Positions 38,024-38,830 of a stretch of 64,000 bases of DNA are shown here, piece by piece. Position 1 is the stretch's first letter, and each line of letters begins with the position of its first letter. Source of the stretch: Escherichia coli (lineage in GTDB: Bacteria; Pseudomonadota; Gammaproteobacteria; Enterobacterales; Enterobacteriaceae); the NCBI RefSeq assembly GCF_003334335.1, contig NZ_QOWQ01000001.1. One strand, 5' to 3'. The notes under the pieces are model-generated. The model was given only the letters and a program-made list of their open reading frames with translations, was not told the origin of the DNA and did no database searches. Position numbers and translations under genes: made by a program.

Positions 38024-38572
38024 TTACCACTCCCAGACTTTCGACGGTGTAACCACCGCAGGAAGAGGGATATCCCACTCTTCAACGGGGAGTTTTTCCA
38101 CCAACTGACAATCATGCGCATAACCCACCGGTTGCGTTTTATAGTGCTGCCAGTTTTGTAAGGTCCGATCATAAAAACCACCGCCCATTCCCAGGCGCTG
38201 ACCGTACTCATCAAAGGCGACCAGCGGTGTGATCAGCACGTCTAATCGGGAAAGGGGTAGCACGTCACGCACATCCAATTTTGGCTCATGGATCTTCAAC
38301 CTGTTCATCACCAGTTCGCTTTGCGGATGGTAATTCAGGAACAGCAAATTACCGGCACTAAAGGGATGCAAAACTGGAAGATATACGCGCTTACCGGCGC
38401 GCCAGAGTTGTTCTATGAGTGGCTGGGTGTCGAGTTCGCCATCAAAAGAGAGGAATACAGCGACCGTATGTGCCATCACCACCGGGGGATAAGTCATCAT
38501 CCGGGTAGCGGCTTGTTGACCCATTTCCTGCTGTTGTTCCGGCGTTAACGCACGACGACGTTGCCGAATCAT
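38024..38572 (-). CDS. fau: 5-formyltetrahydrofolate cyclo-ligase, 182 aa
   Basis: ORF 38024..38770 trimmed to MIRQRRRALTPEQQQEMGQQ; the ORF-track 5' extension runs into the 6S RNA gene. Confidence 0.85.
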   Translation of the reverse strand: MIRQRRRALTPEQQQEMGQQAATRMMTYPPVVMAHTVAVFLSFDGELDTQPLIEQLWRAGKRVYLPVLHPFSAGNLLFLNYHPQSELVMNRLKIHEPKLDVRDVLPLSRLDVLITPLVAFDEYGQRLGMGGGFYDRTLQNWQHYKTQPVGYAHDCQLVEKLPVEEWDIPLPAVVTPSKVWEW

Positions 38573-38646
38573 TTTGCGGATTTCTTGTCGGGATAATGTC
38601 AGTGGGAGTTCTGGTAGTTGCGTCATGGCTGGTGCCAGATAAGAAG

Positions 38647-38830
38647 GGAATCTCCGAGATGCCGCCGCAGGCTGTAACCCTTGAACCCTTGGTTCAAGGT
38701 GAATGTGTCGTCGCAGTTTTAAGGCTTCTCGGACGGACCGAGCATGCTCACCAACCGCGGAGCGCCACATTCTTGTGGTATGAAATATCGGCTCAGGGGA
38801 CTGGCCCGCTTGCGAACATCTCAGAGAAAT
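38647..38830 (-). ncRNA. ssrS: 6S RNA (RNA polymerase sigma70-holoenzyme regulator), about 184 nt
   Basis: Reverse complement of 38761..38830 reads ATTTCTCTGAGATGTTCGCAAGCGGGCCAGTCCCCTGAGCCGATATTTCATACCACAAGAATGTGGCGCT, the 6S RNA 5' region as I remember it; 3' end approximate (within about 3 nt). Confidence 0.85.

Follow-up and report, generated by a model that had tools for sequence, protein, structure and literature searches.

Whether the segment between zapA and fau encodes an RNA, a protein or both was the question raised by this locus. The mechanical ORF list of the window (the whole 64,000-nt stretch of Escherichia coli DNA that was analysed) contained a 248-aa ORF at 38024..38770 on the minus strand, which overlapped the 6S RNA gene (ssrS) by 124 nt (38647-38770). 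The 248-aa ORF exists because the fau frame is stop-free through most of 6S, with an ATG at 38770. In the reading favoured here, which was given a probability of about 0.98, 38647-38830 on the minus strand is ssrS, the 248-aa ORF is artefactual, and fau most likely starts from the ATG at 38626 and encodes 200 aa. The features are collected in Table 1.

Table 1. Positions of the features at and around the ssrS-fau locus and of further RNAs in the window
Feature	Position	Strand	Basis or remark
ssrS, mature 6S RNA, 184 nt	38647..38830	-	RF00013 match, MG1655 identity, fold, compensatory changes
pRNA template, 6S positions 44 down to 25	38787..38806	-	Residue numbering and computed complement; role from the literature
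Predicted promoter P1 (proximal)	38846..38875	-	Consensus scan: -35 ATGACA, 18-nt spacer, extended -10 TGgTAGAGT
Candidate promoter P2 (distal), inside zapA	39062..39090	-	By eye: TTGCAA 39090-39085, 17 nt, TAGAGT 39067-39062
zapA, upstream neighbour; contains candidate P2, abuts P1	38872..39201	-	ORF list, annotation
Spacer from 6S 3' end to fau start codon, 20 nt	38627..38646	-	Sequence
Apparently artefactual 48-codon 5' extension of fau	38627..38770	-	ORF list, profiles, frame closure, chance rate; 38647-38770 inside 6S
fau (ygfA), 5-formyltetrahydrofolate cyclo-ligase, 200 aa (favoured form)	38024..38626	-	PGAP WP_000192748.1, profiles, conservation
Internal ATG, start of the 182-aa call	38570..38572	-	NC_000913.3; Met67 of the 248-aa ORF, Met19 of the 200-aa form
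SIB (Rfam)	37848-37998	-	133.8 bits
sibC (K-12 annotation mapped)	37822-37962	-	K-12 annotation
ibsC, 19 aa, MMRLVIILIVLLLISFSAY	37864-37923	+	K-12 annotation
naRNA4 (CssrE; nucleoid-associated ncRNA from REP element)	52341-52418	-	Rfam, 75 bits (gathering score 59.5)
ES036 (CssrF) sRNA	24734-24776	-	Rfam, 47.3 bits (gathering score 37.6)

Identity and neighbourhood of the 6S RNA gene

The whole window was scanned with Rfam cmscan. The 6S/SsrS model (RF00013) was matched over its full length (positions 1-187 of 187) at 38647-38830 on the minus strand, with a score of 139.8 bits and an E value of 2.2e-28, far above the gathering score of 46.4 bits. A preliminary description of this DNA had read the reverse complement of 38647-38830 as 6S RNA and had proposed a covariance-model scan with RF00013 as the check; the significant minus-strand match over the full model, together with the identity to K-12 ssrS, confirmed that reading. 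By megablast, all of the complete E. coli genomes (5426 of 5426) contained the segment 37800-39300. It was 100% identical to the corresponding segment of K-12 MG1655, where zapA / ssrS / fau / ibsC are annotated, and a 4-kb stretch of NC_000913.3 was identical to the window. Because of this identity to MG1655 / NC_000913.3, the window was assigned to an E. coli chromosome of K-12 type. Compared with K-12 ssrS (b2911), the gene had the same sequence, the same neighbours (zapA; fau, sibC/ibsC and serA) and a full-length covariance-model match, and no biological difference was found. The sole discrepancy was the annotated length, which was 184 nt in PGAP (38647-38830) and 183 nt in NC_000913.3 (38648-38830); the 6S RNA of E. 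coli is described as 184 nt long (PMC12152304). The assignment is correct but already known and ordinary, as this is the type locus of 6S RNA.

A decayed or unexpressed copy, in place of the functional gene, was also considered as an explanation of the 6S-like sequence; its probability was rated as next to vanishing, and no evidence in support of it was found. The sequence is that of the K-12 gene, which has been characterised experimentally; the covariance model is matched over its full length and a P1-type promoter is in place. Moreover, the stretch containing ssrS had a median of one place per E. coli genome and was single copy in essentially all of them. An abundant 184-nt RNA from the ssrS locus has been detected (PMC2848244, PMC3082872). 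The gene is thus taken as intact ssrS; every defining feature of the 6S family that could be tested was present, and no result spoke against the assignment.

The local order was the textbook one, with zapA, ssrS and fau all on the minus strand, followed by sibC/ibsC and serA. For comparison, 120 loci were collected from a species-level genome collection by a conserved 23-nt 6S motif, and a fau homologue lay directly downstream of 6S on the same strand in 106 of the 120. The gammaproteobacterial synteny of ssrS upstream of ygfA/fau was therefore present both here and in most of the relatives, and a conserved bicistronic ssrS-ygfA unit has been reported (PMC2848244). The preliminary description had likewise placed the 6S gene immediately upstream of fau. 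A few exact matches to the 23-nt motif (L015, L017, L055 and L064) were on non-gammaproteobacterial contigs (Acidimicrobiales, Ideonella, Tropicimonas and Oscillospiraceae), and no fau homologue was found in these loci; the matches may be due to chance or may be 6S genes in another context.

On the other side of fau, a SibC/IbsC type I toxin-antitoxin pair was located just downstream of the gene, within 37822-37998. The Rfam SIB match began 36 nt upstream of the annotated 5' end of sibC, and a promoter-like sequence (TTGACA ... TAATTT) was present there. In one E. coli genome (GCA_014216935.1; L125 1848-2299), two Ibs-toxin genes were found between fau and serA, not one; the number of Sib/Ibs copies at this place is therefore variable.

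Structure, template site and transcription of 6S RNA

The minimum free energy of the 184-nt 6S RNA was -80.5 kcal/mol, compared with -56.7 +/- 4.2 kcal/mol for dinucleotide shuffles (z = -5.6), and 0 of 200 shuffles folded as well. The minimum-energy fold consisted of internal helices closed by a long stem between the 5' and 3' ends, as expected for 6S, and the RNA is modelled as a long irregular hairpin with a central bubble. Full-length RF00013 matches of 104-140 bits were obtained in 15 of 16 sampled loci, the remaining one being truncated where its locus stopped. When 88 different 6S sequences of other Gammaproteobacteria, about 50-98% identical to that of E. coli, were aligned, RNAalifold predicted 42 consensus pairs, and 27 of them had compensatory changes on both sides. 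The features by which the family is recognised, namely a double-stranded rod of ~180-200 nt with a closing stem, a central bubble, a terminal stem-loop and covariation, were all found.

The helix in columns 143-163 was invariant because the loci had been retrieved with that very pattern, and its pairs therefore say nothing about 6S structure. This invariant segment, GGUUCAAGG, formed a local hairpin in the RNAalifold consensus, in which the 3'-strand hairpin CCUUGAAC/GUUCAAGG was preferred. In the Rfam consensus, GGUUCAAGGG was paired instead with CCCCUGAGCC of the 5' strand (columns 33-42), the partner of the invariant segment. The two mutually exclusive pairings look like both states of the known pRNA-induced switch, a link that we infer from the models.

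The template for the pRNA was located by residue numbering. Eight of eight residues (U44, U46, U47, U48, C49, U51, A52 and C53) matched the published numbering (PMC3299989), and a published northern probe for 6S mapped to positions 29-46. The complement of positions 44 to 25 is 5'-AUCGGCUCAGGGGACUGGCC, which starts opposite U44 (38787), and the sequence agrees with the pRNA template site that is expected for the family in the 5' strand of the central bubble. Once mature, the RNA attaches to the sigma-70 holoenzyme, and copying from U44 into pRNA by the polymerase sets the RNA free (PMC3299989); holoenzyme binding and accumulation in stationary phase have been established for the identical sequence (PMC3299989, PMC2848244, PMC12152304). 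In the proposed course of events, the mature 6S RNA would accumulate in stationary phase, mimic an open promoter and fill the active site of the sigma-70 holoenzyme. During outgrowth, copying from U44 into a short pRNA would cause the RNA to refold and the enzyme to be released.

Two putative promoters preceded the gene. The -35 element of P1 overlapped the stop codon of zapA, and the start predicted from it was near 38839, 9 nt ahead of the mature 5' end. The candidate P2 scored 8/12 against the consensus, which was under the threshold of the scan and weaker than P1; its predicted start was near 39054 (-224). Transcription of ssrS reportedly starts at -9 (P1) and -224 (P2), positions said to have been given by Kim & Lee in 2004. 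Both sites would be consistent with the tandem promoters P1 and P2 described for the gene (PMC12152304). Maturation of the 5' end by RNase E/G and of the 3' end by exonucleases has been described (PMC12152304), and published work describes ssrS and ygfA as co-transcribed, with promoters P1 and P2, Rho-dependent termination inside ygfA, and processing by RNase E/G (PMC2848244, PMC3299989, PMC12152304). For this locus, transcription would begin at P1 beside the zapA stop codon and at P2 inside zapA and would run into fau, within which most transcripts would end by Rho-dependent termination. RNase E/G would then cut the 5' end of 6S and exonucleases would trim its 3' end. A terminator-like hairpin within fau (38182-38197) was rejected as a chance occurrence, with 1 found against 1.4 expected.

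The open reading frame through the RNA gene

The 6S gene had exactly one stop-free frame on each strand. On the plus strand, a 108-aa ORF (38596-38922) ran antisense through the whole gene, and it is most likely a mechanical artefact, because 6S has one such frame per strand. On the minus strand, the 248-aa ORF could represent a real, N-terminally extended Fau, in which case the 6S sequence would also, or instead, be coding. In favour of this, the frame has no stop codon and an ATG at 38770, and automatic calls of exactly this product are recorded in 4,897 blocks of a public index of gene positions. The probability of this alternative was nevertheless judged to be extremely low on the following grounds. 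Residues 1-51 were covered by no family profile and no alignment to a solved homologue (Pfam, TIGRFAM, NCBIfam, PDB), and the alignments from all four sources started at residues 52-62. Among 107 loci, only those of E. coli and E. albertii had a fau frame that stayed open over the entire 6S gene; in other genera it closed 47, 64 or 72 nt into 6S, and it closed downstream of 6S in 44 of the 107. The 48-residue extension was hence confined to Escherichia and was not shared with other members of the family. The longest ORF overlapped 6S by 124 nt in the two Escherichia species, in contrast to a smaller overlap or none in most other genera, and the longest-ORF start of fau fell inside 6S in 29 of 105 related species. 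Furthermore, changes within base pairs of the 6S segment compensate each other, the pattern expected of an RNA.

The length of the open frame was not beyond chance. In mononucleotide shuffles, the fau start was preceded by 48 or more stop-free codons in 10% of cases and by 74 or more in 2.8%. The distribution of the calls also stood against a coding role: 4,412 of the 4,897 calls of the 248-aa form were on contigs shorter than 2 kb and 29 on contigs longer than 1 Mb, including complete NCBI assemblies. In the same index, the 200-aa form was called in 67,765 blocks, 14 times as often as the 248-aa form; for the 182-aa form the number of blocks was 833. No support was found for a double role of the 6S sequence, both coding and non-coding, and 38627..38770 is predicted not to be translated into a functional part of Fau. 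The earlier claim that the 248-aa ORF is an artefactual extension of fau agreed with the profile coverage, the lack of conservation and the RNA-type covariation, and its warning that a naive annotation would mis-call the gene was justified by the 4,897 blocks with the identical product.

The start codon of fau

The family of the fau product was evaluated with the 248-aa ORF as the query. NF007661 was matched with 446.2 bits (cut-off 343) by profile positions 2-198 of 198 on residues 52-248; TIGR02727 with 179.6 bits (cut-off 84.9) by positions 1-182 of 182, from residue 61; and PF01812 by model positions 1-186 of 186, also from residue 61. The solved homologues 2JCB, 1YDM, 1SOU and 3HXT were aligned from residues 60-62. 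Fau was above all three cut-offs and aligned with the solved enzymes from their N-termini, and the gene encodes a bona fide 5-formyltetrahydrofolate cyclo-ligase. Set against this family, the 248-aa ORF adds 48 residues found in no member, and the 182-aa call is without the first 6 domain positions, including two conserved arginines.

The existing calls for fau conflict, with 182 aa in NC_000913.3 (ATG 38572; NP_417387.3) and 200 aa in PGAP (ATG 38626; WP_000192748.1). The preliminary description had taken 38572 as the start and the 182-aa protein as the real one; this is the call of NC_000913.3, but the 107-locus comparison and the profiles favour 200 aa. In the N-terminal alignment (numbering of the 248-aa ORF), Arg65 was invariant in 107 of 107 loci and Arg61 was kept in 95 of 107; because the 182-aa form starts at Met67, downstream of both, it would lose them. 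A start codon of any kind stood at the Met67 column in just 5 of the 107 loci. Upstream of the residue aligned with Arg61, an ATG was present in 99 loci and a GTG in 5, typically at a distance of 7-10 residues. Moreover, the domains of Pfam and TIGRFAM start 6 residues before Met67, and the NCBIfam equivalog starts 15 residues before it. Because Arg61 and Arg65 are conserved, a start at Met67 is rare and the profiles begin upstream of it, the 200-aa form starting at ATG 38626 is more likely than the 182-aa form. The N-terminal Lys/Arg of the cyclo-ligase family bind ATP, a role that was given no weight in the start-site argument; a literature search on these ATP-contacting residues found nothing usable.

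The alternative start at Met67 would leave 38573-38646 as an untranslated leader. It has the NC_000913.3 annotation and the 833 index blocks on its side, and no Shine-Dalgarno motif was recognisable at either candidate start (38626 or 38572). Because neither start has a clear motif of this kind, sequence alone leaves the 182-aa start some standing; nothing relevant was retrieved when the literature was searched for experiments on the start codon of ygfA/fau. Given the loss of the conserved arginines, the start of the solved homologues at residues 60-62 and the 200-aa annotation in PGAP, the 182-aa form was considered quite improbable.

With the favoured start at ATG 38626, the untranslated stretch that separates fau from 6S measures 20 nt and not 74 nt. 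The arrangement is the same as in the gammaproteobacterial ssrS-ygfA (fau) unit, in which the corresponding spacer has a median of ~32 nt in the retrieved loci. No Shine-Dalgarno-like motif was found in the 20-nt spacer, which would be removed from 6S by the 3' trimming. Because the fau start would be only 20 nt past the 3' end of 6S, trimming and Fau initiation would take place on the same short stretch of RNA, and the K-12 182-aa call would describe a truncated Fau without the two conserved arginines. The further proposal that Fau synthesis is mechanically coupled to, or competes with, 6S maturation and Rho termination is speculative and was rated as unlikely.

Because ssrS here is the type locus of 6S RNA, the classic global regulator of bacterial transcription, the locus teaches nothing new on its biology. 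Gene callers that rely on the longest ORF swallow the RNA gene because a stop-free frame runs through the structured RNA. The practical value of the locus is therefore a caution for annotation together with a probable correction of a start codon in the reference genome, where the K-12 fau start (182 aa) is probably 18 codons too short.
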